NCBI GenBank assembly: GCA_002428685.1
Contig: DIXL01000034.1
Span: forward strand, 49-64,048
Source of the DNA: Cloacimonetes bacterium UBA6081
GTDB lineage: Bacteria > Cloacimonadota > Cloacimonadia > Cloacimonadales > Cloacimonadaceae
Reading direction: 5' to 3'
Length of the DNA stretch: 64,000 bases
Part shown: in pieces, positions 1-54,284 of the stretch
How positions within the stretch are numbered: the first letter of the stretch is position 1
Layout: the number at the start of each line of letters is the position of its first letter
Program-made: the position numbers and the translations under genes
The notes under the pieces: model-generated
What the model saw: the letters and a program-made list of their open reading frames with translations, nothing else
Told to the model about the DNA's origin: nothing
The model's database searches: none

Positions 1-62
1 ACTTGCATGTGTTAGGAACGCCGCCAGCGTTCGTCCTGAGCCAGGATCAAACTCTCCATCAT
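1..62 (-). rRNA. rrs: 16S rRNA gene, 5' end only (the rest lies left of the window)
   Basis: Reverse complement of 1-55 reads AGAGTTTGATCCTGGCTCAGGACGAACGCTGGCGGCGTTCCTAACACATGCAAGT, the universal 27F site and first helices of bacterial 16S rRNA. The exact 5' end (about 55-62) cannot be fixed. Confidence 0.93.
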
Positions 63-2672: not shown

Positions 2673-4001
2673 ATGAAGAATATCATATATCTTGCGCTTT
2701 TACTAATCGTTAGCTCTTGTGCGCTTGGAAACAATGAGCCCGCCTGGGTGCAACAAAATCCCACCGACAACTTATACTACAATGCCGTGGTTAGGATAAA
2801 CAAAAAAGCTCCCAACTACGTTGATTTGGCCAGAGATAATGCTTTGAAAGACATCTCCATGCAGATTAGCGTGGTTATTGATTCCAAAGTTGCTTTAACC
2901 GAAGGCGAGATAAACGGTGTTCCCTCTGCCGAGATTATCAACCAAATCCGCACCTCCAGCCGTAACAAACTGGCCAACGTCCAACTGGCAGGCAGCTATC
3001 AAACCGATAAGGACTACTGGGCATATTACCGCCTGTCCAAAAGCGAATACCATCACTGGAGGCAAGAACAGCGCAATCTGGCCATGCAACAAGCCATCCC
3101 TTTGCTTCAGGAGTTCGACGCTGCAACCAGCGATATCGCCTCTGGAATAACCGCCCTGCTAAAGGCTATGGAGCTGACAATTGATTTTGCAGATATGGAT
3201 TTGACAACCAGTTATAAAGGACAAAACATCAATCTTTACAACGAACTCTTAGCCAGGCTGAATCGCATGCCGGAGAGCATAGAACTACACTACTCGGTAA
3301 AAGAGCTAACCCTGGTGGCAAAACAGCGAAACCGCCACATCGTTCCTGTAAGTGTTGCCTATCGCAGTGTTCCCTGTAAAAGCTTTCCGCTATCCTTCAA
3401 TTTTCGTGGGGGTGCCGGCGACATTGTGCAGAAAACATTTACGGACAGCGAGGCAAAAGCGGATTTGATTATCCGCAGAATTACTGATTTTGCTGACCCT
3501 CAGTTCATAGAAATGAAAGCAGATAAAGATTATTGGCTCACCCGCATCGAAAGCCCGGTGATAAAGCACATGTTGGAACTATTACAATTCCAGCCTGCTA
3601 CGTTAAAGCTGAATGTCAGCCGGCCAAAGGCATTTATAGACTATAGTTTTGATAACACATCCGGAAGCTCATACCGTGATTTATTGACCAAGAAGCTACA
3701 AGACCTTGACCTGGAAGTGGTGGCAGACAGTGCTAAAAGCGACTATATCTTTAAAGTAATAATCATTAGCAAGGATGGCGATTTCGTTTCCCGTTTGAAC
3801 CTGTTCTCCGCTTCTGCAGATGCCTTTGTGGATTTAAGACAGACCAAAGGCTACAAAAGCCTCTATAATACGAACTTAACCGGCACAAAAAGCACCGGCT
3901 CCAGTAGAGACGCTGCCATCAAAATGAGTGAATTGAATGCCATTGCGGAAGTATGTGATAAGCTGCTGTATATGCTTGTGGAACAGCACATTATGCAATA
4001 A
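2673..4001 (+). CDS. LPP20-family-like lipoprotein
   Basis: Signal peptide and lipobox MKNIIYLALLLIVSSC are followed by PAWVQQNPTDNLYYNAV, typical of LPP20-type lipoproteins. The gene starts 4 nt after the preceding gene, so it is probably co-transcribed. Confidence 0.5.
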   Translation: MKNIIYLALLLIVSSCALGNNEPAWVQQNPTDNLYYNAVVRINKKAPNYVDLARDNALKDISMQISVVIDSKVALTEGEINGVPSAEIINQIRTSSRNKLANVQLAGSYQTDKDYWAYYRLSKSEYHHWRQEQRNLAMQQAIPLLQEFDAATSDIASGITALLKAMELTIDFADMDLTTSYKGQNINLYNELLARLNRMPESIELHYSVKELTLVAKQRNRHIVPVSVAYRSVPCKSFPLSFNFRGGAGDIVQKTFTDSEAKADLIIRRITDFADPQFIEMKADKDYWLTRIESPVIKHMLELLQFQPATLKLNVSRPKAFIDYSFDNTSGSSYRDLLTKKLQDLDLEVVADSAKSDYIFKVIIISKDGDFVSRLNLFSASADAFVDLRQTKGYKSLYNTNLTGTKSTGSSRDAAIKMSELNAIAEVCDKLLYMLVEQHIMQ

Positions 4002-4027
4002 ATTGGGTTACAAGGTGATTTGGCGCA

Positions 4028-4181
4028 GTGGAAAAGTGGAAAGGTGAAAACCGTTTTGATCTGACACCGTTCTAAGTGTGGAGTCGTTTCAGCCCTTACC
4101 TTCAACAAAGTTGTATCCCAATTTCGAGGCTGAAAGGACTACACATGTCTGAGCTGACACCTGTTACCTGAAACCTGACAC
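4028..4181. repeat. composite intergenic repeat: word block GTGGAAAAGTGGAAAGGTGAAAACC, family-A palindromic element (4076-4145) and CTGACACC/GAAACC words
   Basis: Arms GTGTGGAGTCGTTTCAGCC (4076-4094) and GGCTGAAAGGACTACACA (4128-4145) are imperfect reverse complements (15/17 pairs). The same element occurs at 11628-11698 and 33397-33465. The 4028-4052 block recurs at 50032-55. Confidence 0.85.
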
Positions 4182-5084
4182 CTATTTTAATTCCAACCAT
4201 GAACCAGCTTTCATTTTCCCGCCCTTATACTTTTTGCTATTCTGTTTGTATTCCCTCAATTCCAGTTCCTTCCAATCCCAAGCAAGGTTTTCTCCCAGCT
4301 CTGTTATGTCCTTTAAGGCAGTTTTGCGAATAAAGGCAATAGGCCCGCATTGCAGATAAATTATCTCACCCATTTGGTCAAAGGCTTTCAGTTTGTTTGC
4401 TGCCGATGATTCTGCGGTAAGGTGAAGCTTATTATCCTGCTTTGCGATAATAGAACAACCCACCAAATCATCCGGATAGCGCAACCTTATACTCTGCATC
4501 TGTTTATCCACCAAAAGCACCTCTGCAGCTTCCTGGACAAAAGCTTCACGCATAAGTGTCTCCATGGAAACGCTACGATCACCCATATTCCCTTGCATTT
4601 TAAGCGTGTCAAACCAATTGTCCCAAACATAAATCTGTCGGGGTGCTAACATCGGCTTAAAATCTTCCAGTTGGATGCTCTTTAAATTCCGCGGCCATTT
4701 ACTTTCGCGAAAACTGGGGACTATAATTCTGATATCGTAGTCCGAAAGTTGCCTTCCGTCTTGTTTCAAGGCCAGATATGCGGTATTGGATTTTAGTTCA
4801 AGACGGCTGAAATTCAGCACATAGCCATCGTTCGTCGCCAAACGCATACTGTGCCATTTATCACCTGCCAGGCTTCTCAACCAGGGCAGCAATTCTATGC
4901 CTTGCCATTTTTCTTTCAATTGTGTTCCATCTTTGTCTCGCACCGTTTCAAACCCAAGCAGTTTGCTTTGTTGCAATTCACTGGTGTTAAGCCTCCAGCT
5001 ACGCCCATCATGGTGCCTTAGCTCAATTCCGGACAAGCTGCATAGCATAGATAAGAGCGAGATAATCATTACTAATCTGCGCAT
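4182..5084 (-). CDS. secreted hypothetical protein
   Basis: N-terminal signal-like MRRLVMIISLLSMLCSLSG. The internal pattern WQGIELLPWL...MRLATNDGYVLNF...DIRIIVP...W weakly recalls the sulfite-oxidase/YedY-type fold, which is unverified. Confidence 0.55.
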   Translation of the reverse strand: MRRLVMIISLLSMLCSLSGIELRHHDGRSWRLNTSELQQSKLLGFETVRDKDGTQLKEKWQGIELLPWLRSLAGDKWHSMRLATNDGYVLNFSRLELKSNTAYLALKQDGRQLSDYDIRIIVPSFRESKWPRNLKSIQLEDFKPMLAPRQIYVWDNWFDTLKMQGNMGDRSVSMETLMREAFVQEAAEVLLVDKQMQSIRLRYPDDLVGCSIIAKQDNKLHLTAESSAANKLKAFDQMGEIIYLQCGPIAFIRKTALKDITELGENLAWDWKELELREYKQNSKKYKGGKMKAGSWLELK

Positions 5085-5329
5085 TTTATTTCCTTTTTAG
5101 TTTATGATCCCAATGTTTCTGACATACATAATTTTGTCAATTAGGCCGAAAATTATTGACATAAACTCCCTCTTGTTTTTGTTTGTGCATAGGCCGAGTG
5201 AAAGTTCCTAAACATTAGCATGGGCTTATCACCGATAGGGTATAGCGGGAAACGGCTATGCCTCCCTTTGGAAAGGCTTTGACGGAAATCTTATCCGCGA
5301 TAGCCTCCTGCTTTTCATGGAGGATAAAA

Positions 5330-6156: not shown

Positions 6157-6298
6157 ATTGTCGTTCCCGCGGAGGCGGGAATCCAGCTCAGTAAAAGCTC
6201 TGAAAGAGCGGTAGAAAGGTAAGTATATGCTTCGACATTTTGTGTCATCCCTGCGGGATTATAAAGGGCTGGATTCCCGCCTCCGCGGGAACGACAAT
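6157..6298. repeat. perfect 31-bp inverted repeat flanking an 80-nt spacer, with nested small hairpins
   Basis: ATTGTCGTTCCCGCGGAGGCGGGAATCCAGC (6157-6187) is the exact reverse complement of 6268-6298. Each arm contains TCCCGC-GGAG-GCGGGA. The spacer contains GCTCT-GAA-AGAGC (6197-6209) and ATCCC-TGC-GGGAT (6247-6259). Confidence 0.9.
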
Positions 6299-6366: not shown

Positions 6367-8247
6367 ATGCGTAATCTACTCTGTCTATCAGTGTTTATCC
6401 TACTTGTTTCAAATCTATTTGCCAGCCAAACCCCCGATAGCCTGAAGACCTTTTATCTACCAACCGTTAGGGTTATAGTGAGCAAAAACTCCGAAGCCAT
6501 TGGTATTTTATCTCATCTTTCGGGTGATAAAATTGCTTCTGCCGGTACCATTCAAGAGGCAATGCAAAACACTCCGGGTATAACTGCAACCAGTGGCAGC
6601 AAGGACGAAAGCAATTTGCGCTTAAGGGGATTTCGCAAGAATGAGGTGAAAATCCTGATTGATGGCAGGCCTCTCACCAATGGCTATTTTGGCAACGTGG
6701 ATATTAGTAAACTGGCTTTGCTGGACATCGCCGAAATTCAGGTTATCAAAGGGCCAGCATCTCCCCTATTTGGCACAAACACAATGGGTGGAGTGCTGAA
6801 TATCATCACCAAAAACCCCAACCCCAAAGACTGGATGCAGCTTAATCTTGCCCTTAAACGCAATAATACTCAGCAGGTTAGCATCGAGTCTTCGCATCGC
6901 TTTTTGAATTGGGATTATGCCTTGGGCATGGCGATGGACAACACCGCTGGCTTTGTGCTCTCGGACGATTTTTCTCCTACTTATTCTGAAAATGGAGGAG
7001 TCCGAAACAATAGCGACAAAAGAGGTTACAACCTTCGCGGCTCGTTGGGAAGTGAATTGTTCACCTATCACGGCGTTCATCTATCGTTTGGTTACAGCGG
7101 TATGGACAAAAAAGACATCCCCTCTTCCATTTACGAGCGCAAATTCCGCCGATATGAGGCTTGGAATCGCTACAATGCAGGTGCAAGCGGAGAATTCAGA
7201 TTATCCGACTACGCCCAGCTATTCACGCTGATTTCTTTGGACGGAGCAGCAGACCGCTATTTGGAATACCGCGAACCCACTTTATCGGTGGTTGATGTAG
7301 ATTCGGACATGAAAAATACTTCTCTTGCCATAGCTCCCCGGATTAAATGGCAACTAAACGGCAATAAATCGCTGGATTTTGGCTACCGCCTCGAACTGCA
7401 AACCAACAAACGCAAAGATAATGGTGAGTATCTAAACTGGACGCAAAGTTCCTTGCAGCTTCACAGCCTGTTCTGCCAGTTCGAACAGCAGCTATCAGAT
7501 GCCTGCAGGCTTACTTCCGCGCTTGGTTTAGCCGGCAGTATCAACGATCTCAAAAGCAAAATGCAGCTTATTCCGGAACCTGCTATAGGCTTGGTTTATG
7601 AGGGTGCAAAAGGTCAAAACACTGCTATATCCCTGGGGATTTCCAGTGCTCGGCCAACTATGCGCCAGCTTTTTTCCACTTCCAAAGGTAATCCCCGGCT
7701 AAAACCCCAATATGCCTATAAAGCTGAAATCAGCCATTTTCAACCCTTGGTCAAGCAGTCTATCAGCCTTTCCAATAGCGTGTTTTACAACGACACCCAC
7801 CGCTTGATTGATCTTTATCAGGGGAAATACGAAAACATCTATGCGGTACAAAGTTATGGGCTTGAATCATCCCTAAACATAAACCCTATAAACCGTTACG
7901 ATTTTTCTATCTCTTACTCTTATCTGGATTACAGTGTGGGTAGTGATTACCGTTTAACCGAAACCCCCAAACATTCGCTTGACTTTGCTCAAAGGCTGAA
8001 ATTGCCATATAATATGAAACTACAAGCAAACTCTTCCTACCGACATAATCGCCTGTCTCAGGATGAAATAGGCACATATCACAAACTTCCCTCATATTGG
8101 TTGCATAATGTATTATGGCAAATCCCCTGGCAGCGGATAACGTTCTCGCTGGGAATTCAAAATATCCTGGACGCCAATTACCAGGGAGAATATGGCTTTC
8201 CTGCCGAGGGCAGAAACTTCTCCCTTGGCATTAAGCTAACTATATAA
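6367..8247 (+). CDS. TonB-dependent outer-membrane receptor
   Basis: Signal peptide is followed by plug-domain motifs (NLRLRGFRKNEVKILIDGRPLTN...IAEIQVIKGPASPLFGTNTMGGVLNIITK) and a long beta-barrel region. At 626 aa it is typical of small TBDRs. Confidence 0.85.
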   Translation: MRNLLCLSVFILLVSNLFASQTPDSLKTFYLPTVRVIVSKNSEAIGILSHLSGDKIASAGTIQEAMQNTPGITATSGSKDESNLRLRGFRKNEVKILIDGRPLTNGYFGNVDISKLALLDIAEIQVIKGPASPLFGTNTMGGVLNIITKNPNPKDWMQLNLALKRNNTQQVSIESSHRFLNWDYALGMAMDNTAGFVLSDDFSPTYSENGGVRNNSDKRGYNLRGSLGSELFTYHGVHLSFGYSGMDKKDIPSSIYERKFRRYEAWNRYNAGASGEFRLSDYAQLFTLISLDGAADRYLEYREPTLSVVDVDSDMKNTSLAIAPRIKWQLNGNKSLDFGYRLELQTNKRKDNGEYLNWTQSSLQLHSLFCQFEQQLSDACRLTSALGLAGSINDLKSKMQLIPEPAIGLVYEGAKGQNTAISLGISSARPTMRQLFSTSKGNPRLKPQYAYKAEISHFQPLVKQSISLSNSVFYNDTHRLIDLYQGKYENIYAVQSYGLESSLNINPINRYDFSISYSYLDYSVGSDYRLTETPKHSLDFAQRLKLPYNMKLQANSSYRHNRLSQDEIGTYHKLPSYWLHNVLWQIPWQRITFSLGIQNILDANYQGEYGFPAEGRNFSLGIKLTI

Positions 8248-9500: not shown

Positions 9501-11801
9501 TTAATGCGCCAACAGGGCTTCCATAATGGTTGTAGCTGCTTCGGGAAGCTTTGTGCCCGGGCCAAAGATGGCTGAAGCTCCATGCTGATACAAAAATTCA
9601 TAGTCCTGGGCTGGGATTACTCCACCCACAATAACCATGATGTCTTCCCTGCCGTGCTTTTTCAGCTCGTCCATTAGCTGTGGCAACAGGGTTTTGTGTC
9701 CGGCCGCCAAAGAACTCATGCCAATGATGTGGACATCGTTTTCCACAGCCTGACGTGCAGTTTCTTCCGGAGTTTGGAACAAAGGACCCATATCCACATC
9801 AAAACCCATGTCTGCATAGGCTGTGGCCACCACTTTGGCACCACGGTCATGCCCGTCCTGCCCCATTTTGGCAATTAGGATACGGGGACGGCGGCCTTCC
9901 TGTTCGGCAAATTTATCGGTTAAAGCCCGAACCTTTTCAATATCATCCATTTTGGCATACTCACTGCTATATATATTGTTTATCATTCTAATCGTGGCCT
10001 GATGGCGACCATAAACCTTTTCCAGGGCGTCCGAAATTTCTCCCAGAGAAGCACGTTTGCGAGCAGCATCAATTGCCAGTTCCAACAAATTTCCTTCCTT
10101 GGTTTCGGCACATTTGGTCAAAGCTGCCAAACTGGTGGTTACCTCTGTGTTATTACGCTCTTTGCGCAGTTTTGCCAAACGGGCTAATTGCGAGGTTCGG
10201 ACTGCGGTGTTGTCAACTTCCAGGATGTCCATGGCAGCTTCTGTATCAGGACGATATTTGTTGACGCCAACAATTACGTCTGCACCGGAATCAATCTTGG
10301 CCTGACGCCTGGCAGAGGCTTCTTCTATGCGCATTTTGGGAAGGCCGGTTTCGATGGCTTTGGCCATGCCACCCAGCTTTTCCACTTCCGTGATGTGATC
10401 CCAGGCTCTATGCATCAAGGCATCTGTTAAAGATTCCACATAATACGAGCCTGCCCAAGGGTCAATAACTTTACAAACGCCTGTTTCGTGTTGCAAATAA
10501 AGCTGTGTGTTGCGGGCAATGCGGGCACTGAAATCTGTGGGGAGGGCAATGGCCTCATCCAAAGAATTTGTATGTAGCGATTGGGTATGCCCCATTGTAG
10601 CGGCCAGGGCTTCGATTGTGGTTCTGGTGATGTTATTATAGGGGTCTTGTTCGGTAAGGCTCCAGCCGGAAGTTTGGCTATGAGTTCTGAGAGCCATGGA
10701 TTTGGGGTTTTTGGGGTTGAATCCTTTAATAATCTTTGCCCATAACACTCTGGCACCACGCAGCTTGGCAATTTCCATGAAATAGTTCATGCCTTCTGCC
10801 CAGAAAAATGACAGACGGGGAGCAAAGACATCAATATCTATGCCTGCATTTATGCCGGTGCGCACATATTCCAATCCATCGGCCAGGGTGTAGGCCATTT
10901 CCAAATCGGCAGTAGCACCTGCTTCGTGCATGTGATAACCGGAGATGCTGATGCTATTGAATTTTGGCATTTTCCGGCTGGTGTAACTAAAGATATCTGC
11001 AATAATTTGCATGGAGGGCAAGGGCGGATAGATGTAAGTATTGCGAACCATGTATTCTTTTAGAATATCGTTCTGGATGGTACCATTCAGAGCTTCGGGG
11101 CGGACGCCTTGCTCTTCGGCTGCCACAATATAAAATGCCATTATTGGTAACACCGCACCGTTCATGGTCATGGAAACACTCATCTGATCCAGAGGAATGT
11201 GATCGAAAAGGATCTTCATATCCAGGATGGAATCCACTGCCACACCGGCTTTGCCAACATCACCAACCACTCTTGGGTGATCGGAATCGTAACCGCGATG
11301 GGTGGCTAAATCGAAAGCTATGGATAAGCCCTTCTGCCCCATCGCCAGATTTCGGCGATAAAAAGCATTGCTTTCTTCGGCCGTGGAAAAACCTGCGTAT
11401 TGGCGAATCGTCCAGGGTCTTTGTATAAACATGGAAGGATAGGGACCGCGTAAAAAAGGTGGCAAACCGGAAAGATAATCCAGATGCTCCAGTTTTAGCA
11501 AGTCTTGCTTTGTATATAAAGCTTTAACGTCTATCTGCTCATTGGTTTTCCAGAGGCGTGAGTCTGGAGTCGATGTCGTCTTGTCAAGATTTAAATCCAT
11601 CTTAGATATAGAGGGGACAGAATTGTCGTGTGTAGTCCTTTCAGCCTTTGAATTGGGAGTTAAGTTTGAACCTGGAGAAGGCTGAAACGACTCCACACTT
11701 TGCGACTCCACACTTTGCGACTCCACACTTTGCGACTCCACACTTGGTGCCTTTACACGGGTTTTAAACTGCGGATTCAGAGTCATAAAATCAGGATTCA
11801 T
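9501..11801 (-). CDS. mutB: methylmalonyl-CoA mutase large (catalytic, B12-binding) subunit with a repeat-derived N-terminal extension
   Basis: Conserved mutase sequence runs from about [16 protein letters not shown] to the C-terminal B12-binding domain ([18 protein letters not shown]). The ATG at 11801 overlaps the mutA stop (ATGA) and follows GGGGGTGA. An alternative ATG at 11600 (MDLNLDK) has no SD. Confidence 0.88.
11628..11698 (-). repeat. family-A palindromic element copy (inverted orientation) inside the 5' end of the mutB ORF
   Basis: Plus strand reads GTGTGTAGTCCTTTCAGCC...GGCTGAAACGACTCCACAC, the reverse complement of the 4076-4145 and 33397-33465 elements. In the mutB frame it translates as [24 protein letters not shown]. 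Confidence 0.85.
11688..11747 (-). repeat. 4 x 15-bp tandem repeat (CGACTCCACACTTTG) encoding (VESQS)n
   Basis: Units lie at 11688, 11703, 11718 and 11733; the last has one substitution. The unit duplicates the outer arm of the adjacent palindromic element. Confidence 0.9.
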
Positions 11802-13696
11802 TGGTTCACCCCCATTTGCAATGCCAATTGGCTTAAAGTGTTAAAAACATCCGCACGAATATGGATAAACAGGTTTATACCCTGTTGCTTGTAGCTTTCC
11901 ACCAAGTCTGTTGGGTAACCAGCCAGAATTAATATCTGACCCATCAGTTCTTTGCGCAATTCCGGAACCAGATTTATATAGTTATCATCGGTGGAACATA
12001 GGCAAAAAGCCTTGGCACCAGAAGCTTTGGCAGCTTGAACAGCTTCAGAAACGGAGGCAAAACCATTGTTTGATATCACTTCAAAACCTCCAACTTGCAA
12101 AAAGCCGGAAGCGAAATCGGCTCTGGCTTTGAATTCTGCAATTGAGCCCATATTAAGCAGGAAGACCTGTTTGTTTGCTTGCGATTTGGCAAGGGATAGC
12201 CGTAGATTCTCCAGGATTTCCATAGCTCTGTGGCGCGGCAGGGCACCTTTATCCAGTTCTACTGCCTTAGAAGATTCTGGAACATCAGACTCGCTACCAT
12301 TTACCGGCTCTTTTTCCAGGGGATTTGCATACATATTAATGCCGACAAACACATCCTTGCGTTTGTTCACAGCTTCAATTCTGGCCTTTGCAATCGGCTC
12401 TATCAATTCGTGAATCTTTCCAGCGCGTAAACAACGAACCATGCCTCCCATCGATTCAAGGTCTTGCATCAAACCCCAAGCTTTTGTGGCTAGTTCGCTG
12501 GTGAGGCTTTCTATATAATAGCAGCCACCCGCCGGATCAATCACTTTGCCAAAGTGTGCTTCTTCTTTTAGGATTATCTGCTGGTTTCGGGCAATGCGAC
12601 GGCTAAACTCATCGGGGATTTCGGTAAGCTGGTTAAAATGGCCTATCTCCAAACTATCCACTCCGCCAATAACTCCTGCAAAGCCTTCTGTGCCTGTGCG
12701 GAGCACGTTTACATAATTATCATAGATGCTTTTATTGAAGTTGGCTGTTTTGCCATGAATCCAGATCTTTTGGTTTGATTCACTACCACCAAAAGCTTTG
12801 ATCATTTCTGCCCAAAGCAATCTGAAAGCCCTGATTTTGGCTATTTCCATAAAGAAATTTGAGCCTAAAGACAGTTTTACCTGGAACAAAGGCGCAAGCT
12901 GGTTTATTGTAAACCCAGAATACTGTAAACCCTGAATCAGTCCAATTGCATTAGATAACACAAAACCAAGTTCCTGCATGCTGGAAGCTCCGGCAGCTTC
13001 ATAAACTGTTCCATCCAGTGATAGCACCCGAATCCCAGGAGCTTTTTCGGAAGCCCATTTAACACTATCAACCAATTTTTGCCAGAAATCTTCCAAGGGC
13101 AGATCGCAATAACCAAGCCGGGCAAATTCGCCAGTGGGATCAAAGCCTATTCCTGCCTTCAAATCAGCCAGGGAGACGCCAATTTCATCCACATACTTTT
13201 CTAACAACAGCAAGAAGCCATCATCGCGGACATCCAACTGCATAAACAGAGGCGCAGCCAGCAAATCCACACCCGCAAAAGCTGTGCGCAGATCATCAAT
13301 ATTTTTAAAAACTACACCACGATTGTTGTCTTCGTGTTTAAGCGTGAGATTCACAGCCGTAAGACCGAGATTAAGCTCTTTCAACAGCTCTGCATTCAGC
13401 TTGTTCAAATCCGATTCATCATGGTTTTGAGCTACCAGCCAGCCCTGCTGTAAAAAACGCTGCGGATCGTTTCCCCGCAGATAGGGCGAGGTGCCAGGCT
13501 GGTTATCGGTAAAAGGTAAATCTGCCACGTCTGCTTTGGTATAAATGGGCTTAAGCGTTATCCCCTCATAGGTTTTGGTCTTCATTACTTTGTCAAAATC
13601 TGCACCTTTCAGGCTATCCTTCACCGCTTGCAACCACTGGTTGTAATCGTTGGGCGGAAAGGTTTCCTTCAGATTCAGTTTGGTTTCGCTATCCAC
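11798..13696 (-). CDS. mutA: methylmalonyl-CoA mutase small (beta) subunit
   Basis: 632-aa paralog of the large subunit. Its N-terminus ([36 protein letters not shown]) is typical of MutA, and it lies directly upstream of and overlaps mutB. Confidence 0.8.
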
Positions 13697-25980: not shown

Positions 25981-26156
25981 GTTTTAATGCAAAACGAGCG
26001 TTATGTTACCGTATAAATTGGGGTAAGCAGATAAACTTCAGTTGCAGTTATGAACAGGGAGTCGCTCTCGTTTAACATCAAAACTGTCTTCAGTTGCAGA
26101 CATGAATCAAGGAGCCGCTCTCGTTTTGCATCAAAACTACCTTCGGTTGTTGCCCT
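25981..26156. repeat. 2.3 copies of a 52-53-bp tandem repeat plus an upstream inverted partial copy
   Basis: Units start at 26036, 26088 and 26141 (CTTCAGTTGCAG..ATGAA..GGAG.CGCTCTCGTTT..CATCAAAACT). GTTTTAATGCAAAACGAGCG (25981-26000) is the reverse complement of the unit's 3' part. Confidence 0.8.
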
Positions 26157-32799: not shown

Positions 32800-33609
32800 A
32801 TGATACATGAAATGTTAAAAGATAAAAAGGTCATTCTGGCTTCTGCCTCGCCACGCCGGGCAGAGCTTTTTAAGTTATTAGGAATTAATGCCAAAATAAT
32901 CCCTGCTGATGTGGCCGAACCGTTAACAGATGAACTACCTCCAATTCAAGCAATTCACCATGCCTCAAACAAGGCTTCGTTAATCTCGGAAAAGTATGGT
33001 GCTAGTAACCTCGTTGTTGCCGCGGATACGGTAGTGGCCATCGATAAACATATTTTAGGCAAGCCAGATAGCGTAGCACAGGCCTGTCAGTATTTAAAAT
33101 TGCTTTCTGGGCGCAAGCACAGCGTTTTCACCGGACTATGTCTGATGCTTGAGGGTAAAACACTTAGTTCCTACGAACACACCTTTGTTCAGTTTGCCGC
33201 ATTAAGCGAAACCGAGATAGAGGCTTACATTGCCACCCAAGAACCCATGGACAAGGCCGGTGCTTATGGCATCCAAGGTTACGGAGCACAGTTCATCGTA
33301 TCAGTTCAAGGCTGCTATTTTAATGTGATGGGGTTACCGATCCGCTTGTTTTACAATACTTTGCAAGCATTGTTAGGGATACAGAATTCAACAGATGTGG
33401 AGTCGTTTCAGCCTTACCCAGGCTCAAATATGTCTCCCATTTTCAAGGCTGAAAGGACTACACACGACACCCAGTCAACCCAGCAATCGCCGTTTATAGT
33501 CCATTCCGCCGTGAAGACTGAGCCTTATTTAAGCCAGAACAAGGCAGAATCGACTCCAAACTTTCAATCATCCCCTCAGCTTCCGACCCTGCCCAAGGAT
33601 ACATTATGA
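32800..33609 (+). CDS. maf: Maf-like nucleoside-triphosphate pyrophosphatase with about 75-aa repeat-derived C-terminal extension
   Basis: ILASASPRR, ADTVV and KAGAYGIQG motifs. Canonical Maf would end near ...RLFYNTLQALL (about 33375). The ORF continues through two palindromic elements to a TGA that overlaps the next gene's ATG (ATGA at 33606-33609). Confidence 0.85.
   Translation: MIHEMLKDKKVILASASPRRAELFKLLGINAKIIPADVAEPLTDELPPIQAIHHASNKASLISEKYGASNLVVAADTVVAIDKHILGKPDSVAQACQYLKLLSGRKHSVFTGLCLMLEGKTLSSYEHTFVQFAALSETEIEAYIATQEPMDKAGAYGIQGYGAQFIVSVQGCYFNVMGLPIRLFYNTLQALLGIQNSTDVESFQPYPGSNMSPIFKAERTTHDTQSTQQSPFIVHSAVKTEPYLSQNKAESTPNFQSSPQLPTLPKDTL
33397..33465 (+). repeat. family-A palindromic element copy inside the 3' end of the maf ORF
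   Basis: GTGGAGTCGTTTCAGCC (33397-33413) ... GGCTGAAAGGACTACACAC (33447-33465), translated as [24 protein letters not shown]. Confidence 0.85.
33511..33561 (-). repeat. degenerate, shorter family-A element in opposite orientation
   Basis: GTGAAGACTGAGCC (33511-24) ... GGCAGAATCGACTCCAAAC (33543-61) resembles the reverse-complement form of the element (GTGTAGTCCTTTCAGCC...GGCTGAAACGACTCCAC). Confidence 0.5.
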
Positions 33610-46798: not shown

Positions 46799-49700
46799 AT
46801 GAACGAATTACAAGATTTCATTAGCCGATACCGGCGTCAGATAAACCTCCGCTTTACCCTGCAAGCCTTGCTAAATAGCTTGGTAGGCTTTGTTATGGGT
46901 TTGCATCTGTATTATATCTTGTGGCTGAATATTGATACCCAGTCTGCTGCCTTGATCTATGCAAACATCGGCATTCGAGCTTGCATTGCGTTGGTAATTA
47001 TCTACTTTTTGTGGCAAGGATACCGTAGATTTTGGGATAAGCTGTTGGTGGCCAGGTTTTTTGACAGGCAAAGCGAACATAATGACGACCTGTTTCAAAA
47101 CACTCTGGAGCTGGCGAATAAAGAAGGCGAAACAATTATTGTCCGGGCTTTGGGCTCGCAAGCAAAACAGCGGCTTGAACAACAGCAATACAGAATCCCA
47201 CCTCTTTTCCCCTCTTGGTTGGTGTTTGGCTTGCTGTTCCTACTTTTGGGAATAGGAAGCATCTGGGCTATGTCAATTGACGATTTTCAGTTGGCTTTCC
47301 GGCAATTTTACACAAACAAACGGCAAGAAATTGTCTATAAAGACTTTATAGAACTAAGCCCCGGCAACCTGCTTATCGGACGCAATCAGGGCATAGAAAT
47401 CAAGATTCTGAATCCCGAACCCCGTTTAAAGCACAGGCTTTTTTACCGCATTGATAAACAGTGGCGCGAATTGGGCTTGGCAGGAAACAGCTATATCTTT
47501 AACCGGATGGAAAATAGCATTGAATACTATGCCGAAAACGAGGTGTGCAAATCGGCTATTTACAAGATCACGGTATTGGATGAACCAATTGCCAAACAGT
47601 GGTGGGTGGAATACAATCCCCCTGCCTACACTGGTTTGCCGGCCTGGACAGATACGCTTGGCTATGGTAATATTGAAGCCCTTAAGCATAGCAAGGTAAA
47701 GCTTTCCATCACCACAAACATCCCCGTGGAAAACGCAGTCATGGTGTTTGATGATGCCAAACGCATTCAAATGCAAGCCCTTGATAAACAAAGCTACATA
47801 ACGCAGCTTAGCATCACTGCTCCGCATACCTGGTATTTGGAATTGACTGATGCTTTGGGACGCAAAAGCAAACCGGAAGAAAAGAGCATAAAGCTTTTGG
47901 CAGATAACCCTCCGGAGATTAGAATCAGCTTTCCCGGTGAGGACATAACCCTGAATCAAAATATGCTGTTACCGCTGATTATTAATACAGATGATGATTT
48001 TGGATTGCGTAACTTATCCTTGCACTATCAAATACAGGCCAGCGAAATCCGAACCCTGAATGTGCAAAGCGTTATCGCCGGTAAGATGTATGCCACAGAA
48101 TTTCTGTTGGATTTTAAAGAGGCCGACCTTTTCCCTGGAGACGTAGTTACTTATTGGGCATCGGTTTATGACAATTCTCCCGATCAGCAAAAAGCTGAAA
48201 GCACCAAGTTTAAGGCACGGTTCCCTTCCATAGAAGAGATTTATAAGGAAATTGAGCGGCAGGAACAATCCAAGAAAAACGAACTGGAAACAGCTCTGAA
48301 CAAATCCAAAGACCTGCAAAAGGATTTTGAGGATAAACGCAGGGAGCTTTTGAAGCAAGATACTCCCAAATGGGAAGATAAAAAACAGCTTGAAAAGATG
48401 CTTTCTGAGCAGGAAAAGCTTTCTCAGCAAGTGCAAAACGTGGCGGAGAACTATCAAAACCTGATAGAAAAGATGCAAGCGAATGACACCCTTTCACCGG
48501 AAACTTTGCAGAAAATGCAGAAGATTCAAGAACTGATGCAAGAAATAAGTAACGAACAACTGCAAGAAGCCATGAAAAAGTTTGAGAATGCGCTGCAAAA
48601 CGTTAAACCCGAAGACCTGAAGAAAGCCATGGAAAACTTCAAATTCTCGATGGAAGATTTTGCCAAAAAGATAGAACAAACCTTGCAACTTTTGGAAAGC
48701 ATAAAAAAAGAACAAGCCATGCAAAAGGCTTTGCAGATATCCGAAGAAATGGAAAAGATGCAAAAGAACCTCAGCGACCGCACCATGGATGACAAAAAAG
48801 ACAATAAAGAACTGGCCGCTGATCAAAAAAAGATTGCTGATACCTATGACAAGCTAAAGGAAGAACTGGATAAGATATCAGATATGCTCAGCTCTCCCAA
48901 AGATAGTGAAGCTAAAAAGCAACTGAATGAACTGCAACAAGATATGAAGAATAGCGAACTCCAAAAAGATATGCAAAATAGTCAGAAATCGCTGGAGCAA
49001 AATCAACGCAGCCAAAGCCAGGGTGAACAGAAAAAAGCCATGGAAAAAATGCGCCGCTTTTCGATGAAGCTTGGACAGATGAAGAATTCGATGAGCTCTG
49101 GCAATCAACAGCAAACCATGCAGGCAATTCAAACCGCCATTCGCGAATTGCTTATCTTTTCCAAAAAGCATGAAGCTACTACAGCGCGGTATCGCAATGA
49201 TCCCTATGCAATTGTGCAGGATTTGATTGCCCACTCTGAAGGGATGCAAATATCTTTAAACAAGCTGTTTAGCGAAGGGCAGGTTCTGATGATTGTGCCG
49301 CCTAAGTTTTTTATAGATTTAACGGATACGAACCGGAGCTATCTGGATGCCTTTAATAGCATTAACGAAAACCAGTATTACTACTTGCCAAATCACCTGG
49401 CCGGCATTCAAAAGGGAATTAACCTGATGGTTTACGATCTGATGCAAGCCCTGCAAAATGCATCATCCGGTGGTGGGGGTGGCAGCGGAGGAATGCAATC
49501 TCTAATGAAGATGCTGGAGCAAATGGGTCAGGAACAAATGGCGATGAACATGCTAACCGAACAATTGATGATGCAAATGCAGAACCAAGGCGGAAGAATG
49601 GACAGTGCTATGCAACAACAGATTCAAAAGCTGGCACAGGACCAGGAACGCCTGGCCGAGAACCTTAAACGCGCCTTGCAAAACAGTCCGGAAGCCCAAA

Positions 49701-50032
49701 AACAAGGAAACGCCATCAAACAGCTTACGGAAGAAATGGATGCCATCACCCGTCAACTGCGCAAAAATCAGCTTTCTCCAGATTTACTTGAGAGGCAGGA
49801 ACGCATCATTAGTAAAATGCTTGATGCCCAACGGTCTATTAATAAACGTGAATTCAGCGAAAAACGCAAAGGCGAAACCGCAGACCCCACCAAAAACAAC
49901 AGCAGTAATAAAATAGACCTTAACAGCCTAAAAAAGAGCAGCCTGCTGGAAGACAGTTACCGCAGCTATCCGAAAGAATATCAACAGGTTATAATGCAAT
50001 ATTTGAAAGCTTTGAGTGAATTGGAGCAATAG
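46799..50032 (+). CDS. 1077-aa membrane-anchored coiled-coil, Gln/Met/Lys/Glu-rich protein (possibly DUF4175-like)
   Basis: AGGAG RBS and N-terminal TM helices (LVGFVMGLHLYYILWL, ACIALVIIYFLW, LVFGLLFLLLGIGSIW). A beta-rich region of about 300 aa is followed by about 500 aa of heptad-like low-complexity sequence, including SGGGGGSGGMQSLMKMLEQMGQEQMAMNML. The family assignment is from memory only. Confidence 0.6.
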   Translation: MNELQDFISRYRRQINLRFTLQALLNSLVGFVMGLHLYYILWLNIDTQSAALIYANIGIRACIALVIIYFLWQGYRRFWDKLLVARFFDRQSEHNDDLFQNTLELANKEGETIIVRALGSQAKQRLEQQQYRIPPLFPSWLVFGLLFLLLGIGSIWAMSIDDFQLAFRQFYTNKRQEIVYKDFIELSPGNLLIGRNQGIEIKILNPEPRLKHRLFYRIDKQWRELGLAGNSYIFNRMENSIEYYAENEVCKSAIYKITVLDEPIAKQWWVEYNPPAYTGLPAWTDTLGYGNIEALKHSKVKLSITTNIPVENAVMVFDDAKRIQMQALDKQSYITQLSITAPHTWYLELTDALGRKSKPEEKSIKLLADNPPEIRISFPGEDITLNQNMLLPLIINTDDDFGLRNLSLHYQIQASEIRTLNVQSVIAGKMYATEFLLDFKEADLFPGDVVTYWASVYDNSPDQQKAESTKFKARFPSIEEIYKEIERQEQSKKNELETALNKSKDLQKDFEDKRRELLKQDTPKWEDKKQLEKMLSEQEKLSQQVQNVAENYQNLIEKMQANDTLSPETLQKMQKIQELMQEISNEQLQEAMKKFENALQNVKPEDLKKAMENFKFSMEDFAKKIEQTLQLLESIKKEQAMQKALQISEEMEKMQKNLSDRTMDDKKDNKELAADQKKIADTYDKLKEELDKISDMLSSPKDSEAKKQLNELQQDMKNSELQKDMQNSQKSLEQNQRSQSQGEQKKAMEKMRRFSMKLGQMKNSMSSGNQQQTMQAIQTAIRELLIFSKKHEATTARYRNDPYAIVQDLIAHSEGMQISLNKLFSEGQVLMIVPPKFFIDLTDTNRSYLDAFNSINENQYYYLPNHLAGIQKGINLMVYDLMQALQNASSGGGGGSGGMQSLMKMLEQMGQEQMAMNMLTEQLMMQMQNQGGRMDSAMQQQIQKLAQDQERLAENLKRALQNSPEAQKQGNAIKQLTEEMDAITRQLRKNQLSPDLLERQERIISKMLDAQRSINKREFSEKRKGETADPTKNNSSNKIDLNSLKKSSLLEDSYRSYPKEYQQVIMQYLKALSELEQ

Positions 50033-51904: not shown

Positions 51905-54284
<2,380 letters not shown>

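Follow-up and report, generated by a model that had tools for sequence, protein, structure and literature searches.

A copy of a hairpin-forming interspersed repeat family probably lies in frame within mutB of a Cloacimonadota bacterium

In the Cloacimonadota bacterium UBA6081, mutB, which encodes the large subunit of methylmalonyl-CoA mutase, carries a palindrome and a 15-nt satellite close to its 5' end, both within the open reading frame. This raises the questions of where the protein begins and how such a segment came to sit in a conserved enzyme. The gene (9501..11801, minus strand; 766 aa; Pfam PF01642 and PF02310) lies in a 64,000-nt stretch of contig DIXL01000034.1, here called the window. 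In the initial annotation, the palindrome and satellite were taken as an N-terminal extension at the mutA/mutB junction, with conserved mutase sequence beginning only around residue 85. However, MutB residues 1-12 are also conserved across Cloacimonadota orthologues, with D4, P10 and F12 invariant in 30 sequences; indeed, all of these orthologues, at 708-714 aa, open with MNPDFxTLxPxF. The start signals are as first described: the mutB ATG (11799-11801, minus strand) overlaps the mutA stop TGA (11798-11800) as ATGA and is preceded by the Shine-Dalgarno sequence GGGGGTGA (11806-11813, minus strand). All Cloacimonadota mutB orthologues share this Shine-Dalgarno sequence and the overlap of stop and start, and in the element-free relatives L001, L002, L004 and L005 mutB has the identical Shine-Dalgarno sequence and the MNPDF start. 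Because the start motif, the Shine-Dalgarno sequence and the overlap are kept in all orthologues, the ATG at 11801 is, on this comparative evidence, the ancestral mutB start. The junction itself (11798..11813, minus strand) is likewise ancestral and no part of it belongs to the element. By the same alignments, the mutA/mutB coupling is older than the element and unaffected by its insertion; to say that the element preserves translational coupling is therefore vacuous, since element-free orthologues have the same junction.

With the start, the Shine-Dalgarno sequence and the first 12 residues all ancestral, the element does not extend the N terminus. It is, as far as the orthologues allow it to be placed, an internal insertion, 19 codons downstream of the start and within a variable linker. 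Residues 1-12, the N-terminal motif, precede the insertion site and WKTNEQ, the first core segment, follows it; among orthologues this linker varies in sequence and slightly in length. The net extra coding segment relative to orthologues spans 11571..11744 (minus strand), residues ~20-77, or 58 aa from 174 nt, in keeping with a MutB of 766 aa here versus 708 aa in P0002/P0003 when the N termini are aligned.

The palindrome is interspersed, as had been proposed. Three copies occur in the window; chance predicts 0.07 arm matches and 7 were found, a count reached in none of 100 shuffles; the matches to the mutB copy lie at 4078-4144 and 33397-33463, and the three element peptides originally quoted were reproduced exactly. 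The element's basic unit, ~75 nt long, is imperfectly palindromic and consists of TGTGGAGTCGTTTCAGCC, a 33-nt loop and GGCTGAAAGGACTACACA, with two conserved 1x1 mismatches. The ~70-bp palindrome first taken as the element is thus real, but it is only module 1 of an element of ~175 nt with terminal inverted repeats. In this full form, module 1 is joined to a second, inverted and diverged module, and the terminal inverted repeats are 13-16 nt long (AAGTGTGGAGTCG ... CGACTCCARACTYA). The short form has module 1 only. Across copies, the terminal box is repeatedly duplicated in tandem, with a period of 15, 24, 42 or 109 nt.

The full element is predicted to fold into two long hairpins or a four-way junction, and the predicted folds of full copies have an outer stem formed by the terminal repeats plus three hairpins (z ~ -5). 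As DNA, the module-1 hairpin has a predicted stability of -14.6 to -17.8 kcal/mol (z = -3.9 to -5.9). None of 200 shuffles was as stable; the hairpin's stability far exceeds that of shuffled sequence. Across 13 copies, 93.9% of stem cells are paired, with compensatory changes at two pairs, and just 3 in 500 shuffles scored as high for stem covariation. The sequence varies in the loop but hardly at all in the arms. Within the arms, conservation extends to all codon positions, a sign of constraint on the DNA and not on the protein. Rfam, searched at gathering thresholds and at permissive E-values, held no family matching the element, and there is no terminator-like T tract at the element.

The mutB copy occupies 11556..11700 on the minus strand (nhmmer with the full-length profile, E = 7e-39). 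Aligned with the copies in maf, L006 and L008, it consists of hairpin module 1 (11622-11700; arms at 11630-11646 and 11680-11696) and a shortened module 2 ending in the 3' terminal inverted repeat. The 5' terminal inverted repeat, AAGTGTGGAGTCG (11688..11700, minus strand), is kept at the 5' end of 13 copies. Its 3' counterpart, CGACTCCAGACTCAC (11558..11572, minus strand), is the complement of the 5' box, and the same 3' end is found in the copies at L006, L008, L013, L014, L015 and L017. The satellite described earlier was recovered by TRF as a tandem array of the 15-nt unit CAAAGTGTGGAGTCG at 11688..11747 (minus strand; 3.9 copies, 100% identical), which translates as SVESQ x3. From its position and sequence we identify this array as an amplification of the element's own 5' terminal box.

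Searches with nhmmer found 10 loci on 5 contigs of one metagenome organism, the one studied here, and three more elsewhere. Of this organism's ten, four are in genes, namely those for MutB, Maf, MurB and RlmN. The full-length copy in maf (33393..33567, plus strand; E = 7e-52) is in frame and lies in the C-terminal tail of a 269-aa ORF (32800..33609) whose Maf Pfam domain stops at residue 190; despite the element, the stop codon of maf and the ATG of the following gene continue to overlap. In MurB the element is also in frame in the C-terminal tail. In RlmN it sits, in frame, in a loop within the radical-SAM core, where 74 residues take the place of the 7-residue loop of PDB 6FZ6, and there is an intact RlmN, 417 aa long, that carries the insert. 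On other Cloacimonadota contigs the element is in frame in the interdomain linker of a primase-helicase and in a hypothetical protein. The in-frame copies thus extend to at least six proteins, which supports the early proposal of an ORF-compatible insertion element of the kind of the Rickettsia palindromic elements (RPEs). All of the inserts lie outside Pfam domains or in a loop, and they lengthen the proteins by 57-70 residues.

Outside genes, the remaining copy in the window is short, with module 1 only (4074..4151, plus strand; E = 6e-23), and lies between the convergent genes 2673..4001 (plus strand) and 4182..5084 (minus strand). Several intercistronic copies carry a putative ORF in the direction of the operon: L008 10001-10237, L015 6867-7379, L017 225-608 and L019 1500-1877. 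Among such small ORFs, P0121 overlaps the upstream stop (ATGA), and P0170, P0172 and P0175 adjoin their neighbors within 2-30 nt. We considered whether copies are always co-oriented with transcription and rejected the idea, as the copy at L018 16252-16325 is antisense to its neighboring genes.

In the long copies, five of the six reading frames contain stops and one is stop-free. Translated, the stop-free frame gives a hydrophilic peptide in which Ser, Pro, Thr and Asn are abundant. With a single stop-free frame per element, shared use of that frame is forced, so the significance originally attached to the common relative frame, as though it were a sign of design, was rejected. In mutB, the insert is probably translated as part of the protein. 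An AlphaFold2 model of MutB built with 30 orthologues had a mean pLDDT of 52.9, with known folded regions also below 50, and was too poor to show whether the insert forms a disordered loop at the surface.

Relatives supply the empty sites that an insertion implies. The mutA-mutB site is unoccupied in L001, L002, L004 and L005, and the Maf of L004 (212 aa) ends ...LLNGDL* with no element. Primase homologues do not have the element peptide; in L006 the primase has exchanged an ancestral linker of similar length for the element, which is not a plain addition there. The MutB segment itself is in none of the 119 other best-scoring homologues listed, the closest of which (91% identity over the shared part) have 708 aa. 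An exhaustive profile search of 1.84e9 proteins found only 11 carriers, and those with contigs retrieved were all on Cloacimonadota-type contigs. A word-indexed protein search with the peptide profile had returned P0121 only; the further carriers came from the exhaustive search. A pattern requiring both arms had no match in GTDB representative genomes or viral contigs and one match, L006, in JGI metagenome contigs. When the arm pattern was relaxed in GTDB, one perfect palindrome appeared in a Pyrinomonadaceae MAG, which we set aside as chance-like and unrelated. The scanned collections hold neither the window's contig nor L007, and hence not this organism, so absence from them says little about rarity; with the GTDB and JGI scans yielding almost nothing, any genome-wide copy number is an extrapolation. 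The window's Maf ORF was absent from the contig index, phage and plasmid records gave no blastn match to the full element, and our literature search found no record of this Cloacimonadota element.

Could the segment be something other than a translated insertion? One alternative is that MutB translation starts at an ATG at 11600, leaving the element and satellite as untranslated mutA-mutB spacer that is open by chance. Such an ATG is present, and the PDB-aligned protein core begins after it, at residue 81, which aligns with residue 34 of 1REQ_A. However, this ATG is internal to the insert and lacks a Shine-Dalgarno sequence, whereas the upstream ATG is kept in all orthologues with its Shine-Dalgarno sequence, stop/start overlap and 12-residue motif. 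At the N-terminal codons, most differences from relatives are synonymous, and the 67 stop-free upstream codons have a chance probability of ~0.04. In addition, the copies in the RlmN radical-SAM core and the primase linker need read-through if those proteins are made. An internal start is, on this evidence, decidedly unlikely. That the segment is instead an ancestral, lineage-specific mutase linker or domain might be suggested by the variability of the MutB linker in sequence and, slightly, in length. But its absence from the 119 homologues listed, the presence of the same DNA with terminal inverted repeats in intergenic DNA and five unrelated proteins, and the DNA-level constraint on the arms effectively refute this reading, so far as sequence comparison can. 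That the insert is an error of assembly or sequencing, for example from repeat-bearing reads joined into a chimera, deserves mention for metagenome-derived sequence, particularly as the L007 assembly has a segmental duplication and an N run at element copies that L008 does not. Such an error is nevertheless highly improbable: three independent assemblies (JGI 3300002498, ENA ERZ27315036 and JGI 3300001567) agree exactly on the 766-aa, insert-bearing MutB, and the RlmN, P0170 and P0121 loci are each present in at least 2 assemblies.

A different kind of alternative accepts the repeat and makes it a functional cis-acting signal, for instance an mRNA-stabilizing or processing hairpin, a translation-rate modulator or a protein-binding array, with selected placement near gene ends. 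Copies do cluster near gene ends and between cistrons: at the 5' end of mutB, at the 3' ends of maf and murB, and after a dinG-like gene, thymidine phosphorylase, deoC and a metallophosphatase. Their hairpins are very stable, the strongly conserved arms show compensatory changes, and in several intergenic copies the open frame is a small ORF adjoining both neighbors, as in MIRUs. In contrast, the lack of an Rfam match and of a T tract, the orthologous operons of relatives that work without the element, the RlmN and primase-linker copies far from cistron boundaries, and the antisense copy at L018, which leaves orientation relative to transcription unfixed, all weigh against such a role. Moreover, placement at gene ends is equally explained by insertion tolerance, as argued for the Coxiella QMITEs (PMC5896051). 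We regard a cis-acting function as unlikely.

The reading we prefer, at a probability of roughly 0.8, is that the mutB feature is one of the copies of a non-autonomous family of interspersed, hairpin-forming repeats, MITE/REPIN-like in kind and RPE-like in function, of one Cloacimonadota lineage. Under this reading, an element copy would have inserted into the variable MutB linker and landed in its stop-free frame, which would leave mutB intact and the element read as an internal insert of ~58 aa. The 15-nt array would be a later amplification of the 5' terminal box, probably by slippage; other copies show comparable amplifications with other periods, of which coding copies can keep only multiples of three. 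No target-site duplication or target consensus is recognizable around 11 copies, the exact ends of which are not fixed by any same-species empty site, and transposition, presumably in trans by a transposase, is for these reasons putative. The CTGACACC repeats beside the 4074-4151 copy belong to a 7-nt tandem array. Neither the window nor the fetched loci contain a transposase or cognate IS with the element's terminal repeats, and ~140 kb of this organism's sequence contains no RAYT (Y1 HUH transposase). The sole recombinase in the window, a XerC/D-like tyrosine recombinase (53340-54284), has no visible link to the element. Speculatively, conserved asymmetric hairpins together with the lack of a target-site duplication would fit a hairpin-recognizing HUH/Y1 enzyme of the RAYT or IS200/IS605 type.

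The element is a new family of a known kind, and shares features with several described repeats. RPEs are palindromic interspersed repeats of ~100-150 nt with one open frame, many of them in frame in housekeeping genes at sites compatible with the host protein fold (Ogata et al. 2000, summarized in PMC10969869 and PMC3184786). The Cloacimonadota element is likewise palindromic and interspersed, with forms of 75 nt and ~175 nt at ten loci in one organism, and likewise in frame in conserved genes (MutB, Maf, MurB, RlmN, the primase-helicase and the hypothetical protein), with MutB and Maf orthologues that have no insert. It differs in its host, a free-living or syntrophic anaerobe where RPE hosts are obligate intracellular Alphaproteobacteria, and in its clear terminal inverted repeats, two-module/four-way-junction architecture, short form with a single module, and terminal box that is repeatedly amplified in tandem. 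In-frame bacterial MITEs include Coxiella QMITE1/2 (PMC5896051), and intragenic ERIC and Anabaena MITEs are also on record (PMC10969869). Like MITEs, the element is small (~175 nt), multicopy and strongly structured, with terminal repeats of 13-16 nt and no transposase gene, and MITEs also prefer 3' gene ends and alter C termini, as in Maf and MurB here. However, no target-site duplication (11 copies) or parent IS is recognizable in the sequence searched, and the inserts run to 57-70 residues, one of them in the RlmN catalytic domain, whereas MITEs overlap a gene end by a few codons.

Module 1, with inverted, conserved arms of ~18 nt, a variable spacer and a long hairpin, resembles a REPIN, and the full copies, which join two inverted modules, resemble a BIME (PMC3184786). 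The lack of a visible target-site duplication and the position of some copies between convergent genes also recall REP/REPIN sequences. Unlike REPs, the arms are not themselves small GC-rich palindromes, and ~40% of copies are genic, where REPs are extragenic by definition (PMC3184786). MIRUs (Supply et al. 1997, summarized in PMC3184786) may be similar in that the putative operon-direction ORFs of intercistronic copies adjoin or overlap flanking genes, and here too short tandem units vary in number; but the MIRU is itself the tandem unit (40-100 bp) and is not known in frame in enzymes, whereas in the Cloacimonadota element the tandem part is the terminal box only. Pneumococcal BOX elements are also modular, with a variable copy number of one internal or terminal module, and can carry ORFs (PMC10969869); they are essentially intergenic, and we saw no sequence relationship to them.

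In-frame palindromic repeats in conserved enzymes have been regarded as an oddity, frequent mainly in Rickettsia (PMC10969869). A presumably sequence-unrelated family in Cloacimonadota indicates that the phenomenon is not bound to reduced intracellular genomes. The Cloacimonadota are uncultured syntrophs that are important in anaerobic digesters and hydrocarbon-degrading consortia. For those who annotate their MAGs, the element creates spurious small ORFs (P0121, P0170, P0172 and P0175) and inflates protein lengths, and in assemblies it causes breaks and duplications, as in L007 versus L008. The family also shows, as a natural map, where MutB, MurB, RlmN and Maf tolerate insertions, and would make a clean model of how hairpin repeats spread without target duplications. 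A further, tentative idea, which we hold to be possible but doubtful, is that evolution, and not luck, gave the element one open frame and a peptide that is hydrophilic and probably disordered. The element would then be a selfish repeat compatible with translation and adapted to a genome where genes are dense and cistrons overlap, an independent second RPE-like origin in a free-living anaerobe, perhaps HUH-mobilized via four-way-junction or hairpin DNA. If so, read-through by the ribosome, as a protein insert or a bridging mini-ORF, would let the element persist without breaking operons, and tandem repeats of its terminal box would give rise to length-variable inserts in the essential enzymes MutB, MurB, RlmN and Maf.

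The palindromic element is a real, well-defined feature of the window. As the initial annotation had it, three copies are present: an intergenic one at 4074-4151 on the forward strand, one within mutB at 11622-11700 on the reverse strand, and one in the tail of the Maf ORF at 33393-33471, on the forward strand. The arm motif is found seven times in the window against 0.07 expected, a count reached in 0 of 100 shuffles, and the three peptides previously derived from the copies were reproduced exactly. Folded as single-stranded DNA, the hairpins of the element have energies of -14.6 to -17.8 kcal/mol (z = -3.9 to -5.9).

In mutB (9501..11801, reverse strand, 766 aa), codons 20-39 consist of 3.9 perfect tandem copies of a 15-nt unit (11688-11745), leading into the imperfect palindrome with its arms at 11680-11696 and 11630-11646. 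The mutA gene (11798..13696, reverse strand) overlaps mutB in ATGA, preceded by GGGGGTGA. It had been proposed that the palindrome and its satellite form an N-terminal extension of the mutase, and that the insertion preserves translational coupling. Neither part of this proposal survives comparison with orthologues. The mutase belongs to the Cloacimonadota (Ca. Cloacimonas / Cloacimonadaceae) type, and nearly all of the 119 other homologues listed are 708-714 aa long, the exceptions being one 657-aa fragment and one 723-aa protein. Every full-length homologue among these 119 has the N-terminus M(K)NPDFxxLxPxF, and an alignment of 30 sequences shows no variation at D4, P10 and F12. The expected empty site is present in the closest element-free relatives, at loci L001, L002, L004 and L005, all of which have the same GGGGGTGA, the same ATG AAT CCT GAT TT and the same stop/start overlap at the mutA-mutB junction. 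The spacing from F12 to WKTNEQ is 13 residues in these four, compared with 71 in the window MutB. From the conserved N-terminus, junctions and spacing, we infer that ATG 11801 is the ancestral mutB start, that the coupling to mutA is itself ancestral, and that the element is an internal in-frame insertion from 19 codons into the gene, with a net gain of 58 aa (174 nt). The ATG at 11600 is situated within the insert. By sequence alignment, the structurally characterised core starts at MutB residue 81, the counterpart of residue 34 in P. shermanii MutB (PDB 1REQ_A); there, the residues before the core presumably form an extended N-terminal arm touching the partner subunit. The window matches contig TOLCLC_10002140 of JGI metagenome 3300002498. 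An assembly artefact was rejected as the source of the insert, because the identical 766-aa protein was also assembled in ENA ERZ27315036 and JGI 3300001567.

An exhaustive HMMER search with a peptide profile from the three window copies returned only 11 carriers among 1.84 billion protein representatives. With nhmmer, 10 element loci were found on the carriers' contigs in what is apparently one organism (TOLCLC and ERZ27315036 samples), and none in the related species' loci L001-L005. About four of the 10 are genic and in frame. Besides the N-terminal linker of MutB, these are the C-terminal tail of Maf, a 269-aa protein whose Pfam domain extends to residue 190 (a relative's Maf has 212 aa and the C-terminus ...LLNGDL-stop); the C-terminal tail of MurB, a 416-aa protein in which MurB_C extends to residue 308 and whose stop codon has kept its overlap with the following gene; and RlmN, where 74 residues stand in place of a 7-residue loop of PDB 6FZ6, between the helix following the CxxxCxxC motif and the GMGEP strand. 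In the Draft_10012114 assembly (L013, about 2672) rlmN is split by a frameshift, probably a sequencing error since the TOLCLC assembly encodes an intact 417-aa protein with the insert. The six intergenic copies are that at window 4074-4151 and those after a DinG-like helicase gene (L008), between thymidine phosphorylase and a Na+/H+ exchanger (L015), after deoC and, in antisense, upstream of rplM (both L018), and after a metallophosphatase gene (L019). The genic share is rough, as the loci were partly ascertained through proteins; it is similar to that reported for the Rickettsia palindromic elements (RPEs) (PMC10969869).

Copies were also found in other samples: in a 241-aa hypothetical protein (L014), at an intercistronic site (L017) and, through a metagenome pattern scan that gave one further copy, in a Cloacimonadota primase-helicase (L006, 825-3488; BT4734-like_N, PriCT_2 and DUF3987 domains). 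In the latter, the linker between BT4734-like_N and PriCT_2 consists of 63 element-derived residues, whereas the closest homologue (P0122, 87% identity) has a different linker of about 50 aa, so that the element looks to have replaced an ancestral linker rather than being purely inserted. The element peptide is absent from the primase-helicase homologues; a decayed homologue (P0176, P0181, P0182) has a diverged element copy at the same site.

When the L006 copy and those of P0121, a protein recovered by the peptide-profile search on contigs L007 and L008 from the same metagenome samples as the window, were aligned with the window copies, similarity reached about 100 nt past the palindrome, as far as a conserved terminus, ATCGACTCCARACTYA. 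In order, the element consists of AAGTG-[TGGAGTCG]-TTTCAGCC-(33 nt)-GGCTGAAA-[GGACTACA]CACG-(10-30 nt)-CGCCGTT-[TGTAGTCC]-ATTCCGCC-(30-35 nt)-GGCGGAAT-[CGACTCCA]-AACTTA. The second half is a weak reverse-strand match to the core profile, and the full element reads as two inverted hairpin modules. In an alternative fold, adopted by full copies with z about -5, a terminal-inverted-repeat stem closes three hairpins with zero unpaired junction nucleotides. Module 2 is shortened in mutB and absent from the intergenic window copy and from two copies on L018, which have just module 1. In a set of 13 copies the arms are nearly invariant at all codon positions and the loop is variable, 93.9% of stem cells pair, and compensatory changes are seen at two stem pairs (TTGCAGC/GCTGCAA in MurB and L014, TTTAAGC/GCTTAAA in L018c); the covariation score of the stem was reached by only 3 of 500 shuffles. 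These features indicate that constraint acts on the DNA or RNA structure of the element, not on the peptide.

A trait of the family is that the terminal box is duplicated in tandem, with a period that differs by copy: mutB has four units of 15 nt, L008 four of 24 nt, RlmN and L019 three of 24 nt, and L015 three of about 109 nt; L017 has partial units at spacings of 36 and 51 nt, and in MurB the 3' end is duplicated over 42 nt. Replication slippage or template switching at the hairpin would be the likeliest origin of such units, and in coding copies only periods that are multiples of three could persist. Two assemblies of one locus disagree: L007 (10001-10520) repeats the entire element in tandem, together with 45 nt of the flank upstream of it, and L008 (10001-10290) does not; the two copies have 4 versus about 1.5 of the 24-nt units. 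L007 also contains a run of N within its MurB copy (11652-11735). The discrepancy is either population heterogeneity or a repeat-induced assembly error.

That the copies share a relative frame, as the initial annotation stressed, is correct. It is no independent sign of design, because exactly one of six frames is stop-free in each long copy and surviving genic copies must share frame and orientation. The same frame stays open through entire intergenic copies (ORFs P0170, P0172 and P0175 of 170, 127 and 125 aa), and so it belongs to the family consensus, as in RPEs. The consensus frame itself could be luck, since the chance of at least one of six frames being open in a 57-codon element is roughly one in three.

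Other repeats occur nearby. The intergenic copy at 4074-4151 is flanked by AGTGGAAA x3 upstream (4027-4050) and CTGACAC x4.3 downstream (4154-4183), the latter entering the stop codon of ORF 4182..5084 (reverse strand); these may be a target duplication, slippage or a binding-site array. CTGACACC is also found immediately upstream of this copy. A Moco/tungsten-cofactor riboswitch aptamer (RF01055, 61 bits) lies at 5180-5294 on the forward strand, between that ORF and a TonB-dependent receptor gene (6367..8247). Just upstream of the receptor gene, an element of a second, unrelated repeat family spans about 140 nt (6157-6298) and is bounded by terminal inverted repeats some 30 nt long, ATTGTCGTTCCCGCGGAGGCGGGAATCCAGC ... 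GCTGGATTCCCGCCTCCGCGGGAACGACAAT. Its GGGAACGACAAT box recurs in L019 (1540-1610), where 3-4 tandem units of 21 nt stand immediately upstream of the main copy of the first element. Elsewhere in the window are a 53-nt tandem repeat (26036-26149, 2.2 copies, 83% identity) and, within a 1077-aa DUF4175-like ORF (46799..50032), DNA repeats 411 nt apart (48557-49458), which indicate that the protein has internal repeats of 137 aa. The window opens inside a 16S rRNA gene (RF00177; 5' end at 1-62, reverse strand), 41 nt ahead of the start of TOLCLC_10002140, and so derives from a longer assembly.

No target-site duplication or conserved target was found at the element copies. Neither the window nor a further 75 kb or so of the organism's sequence yielded a transposase; the sole recombinase in the window is XerC/D-like (53340-54284). 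Rfam, phage and plasmid records gave no match. A perfect hairpin just past a stop codon in a Pyrinomonadaceae MAG (L012 6703-6761, DASWDX010000065.1; ATGTGGAGTCGTT...AACGACTCCACAT) matches the element in its 12-nt outer arm but not in its loop or inner stem; it occurs once and is most likely a chance match, as about 6 such matches are expected. Several features fit a non-autonomous element mobilised in trans: it has terminal inverted repeats, its copies are multiple and dispersed, orthologous sites are unoccupied, shared compensatory changes define subfamilies, and one copy is in a primase-helicase gene of the sort usually seen in mobile elements. Speculatively, and with low confidence, the mobiliser might be a hairpin-recognising HUH/Y1 enzyme, an assignment consistent with the lack of a target-site duplication and with the conserved hairpins, which are asymmetric and bulged.

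The literature records in-frame insertions of MITE type for the RPEs of Rickettsia, the QMITEs of Coxiella (with a preference for the 3' ends of genes), intragenic ERIC, the MITEs of Anabaena and BOX elements (PMC10969869, PMC5896051, PMC3184786), and MIRUs have ORFs overlapping the flanking cistrons (PMC3184786). In the literature searched, no paper ties Cloacimonas to palindromic repeats; the two listed that name it alongside repeats and transposases concern unrelated topics. The element differs from REPs in not being confined to extragenic sites, and it is placed outside the RPE families because the lineage differs and homology is not demonstrated. The analogy to RPEs drawn in the initial annotation holds. 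The Cloacimonadota element is a new family of a known type, RPE-like in its working and MITE- or REPIN-like in its build.
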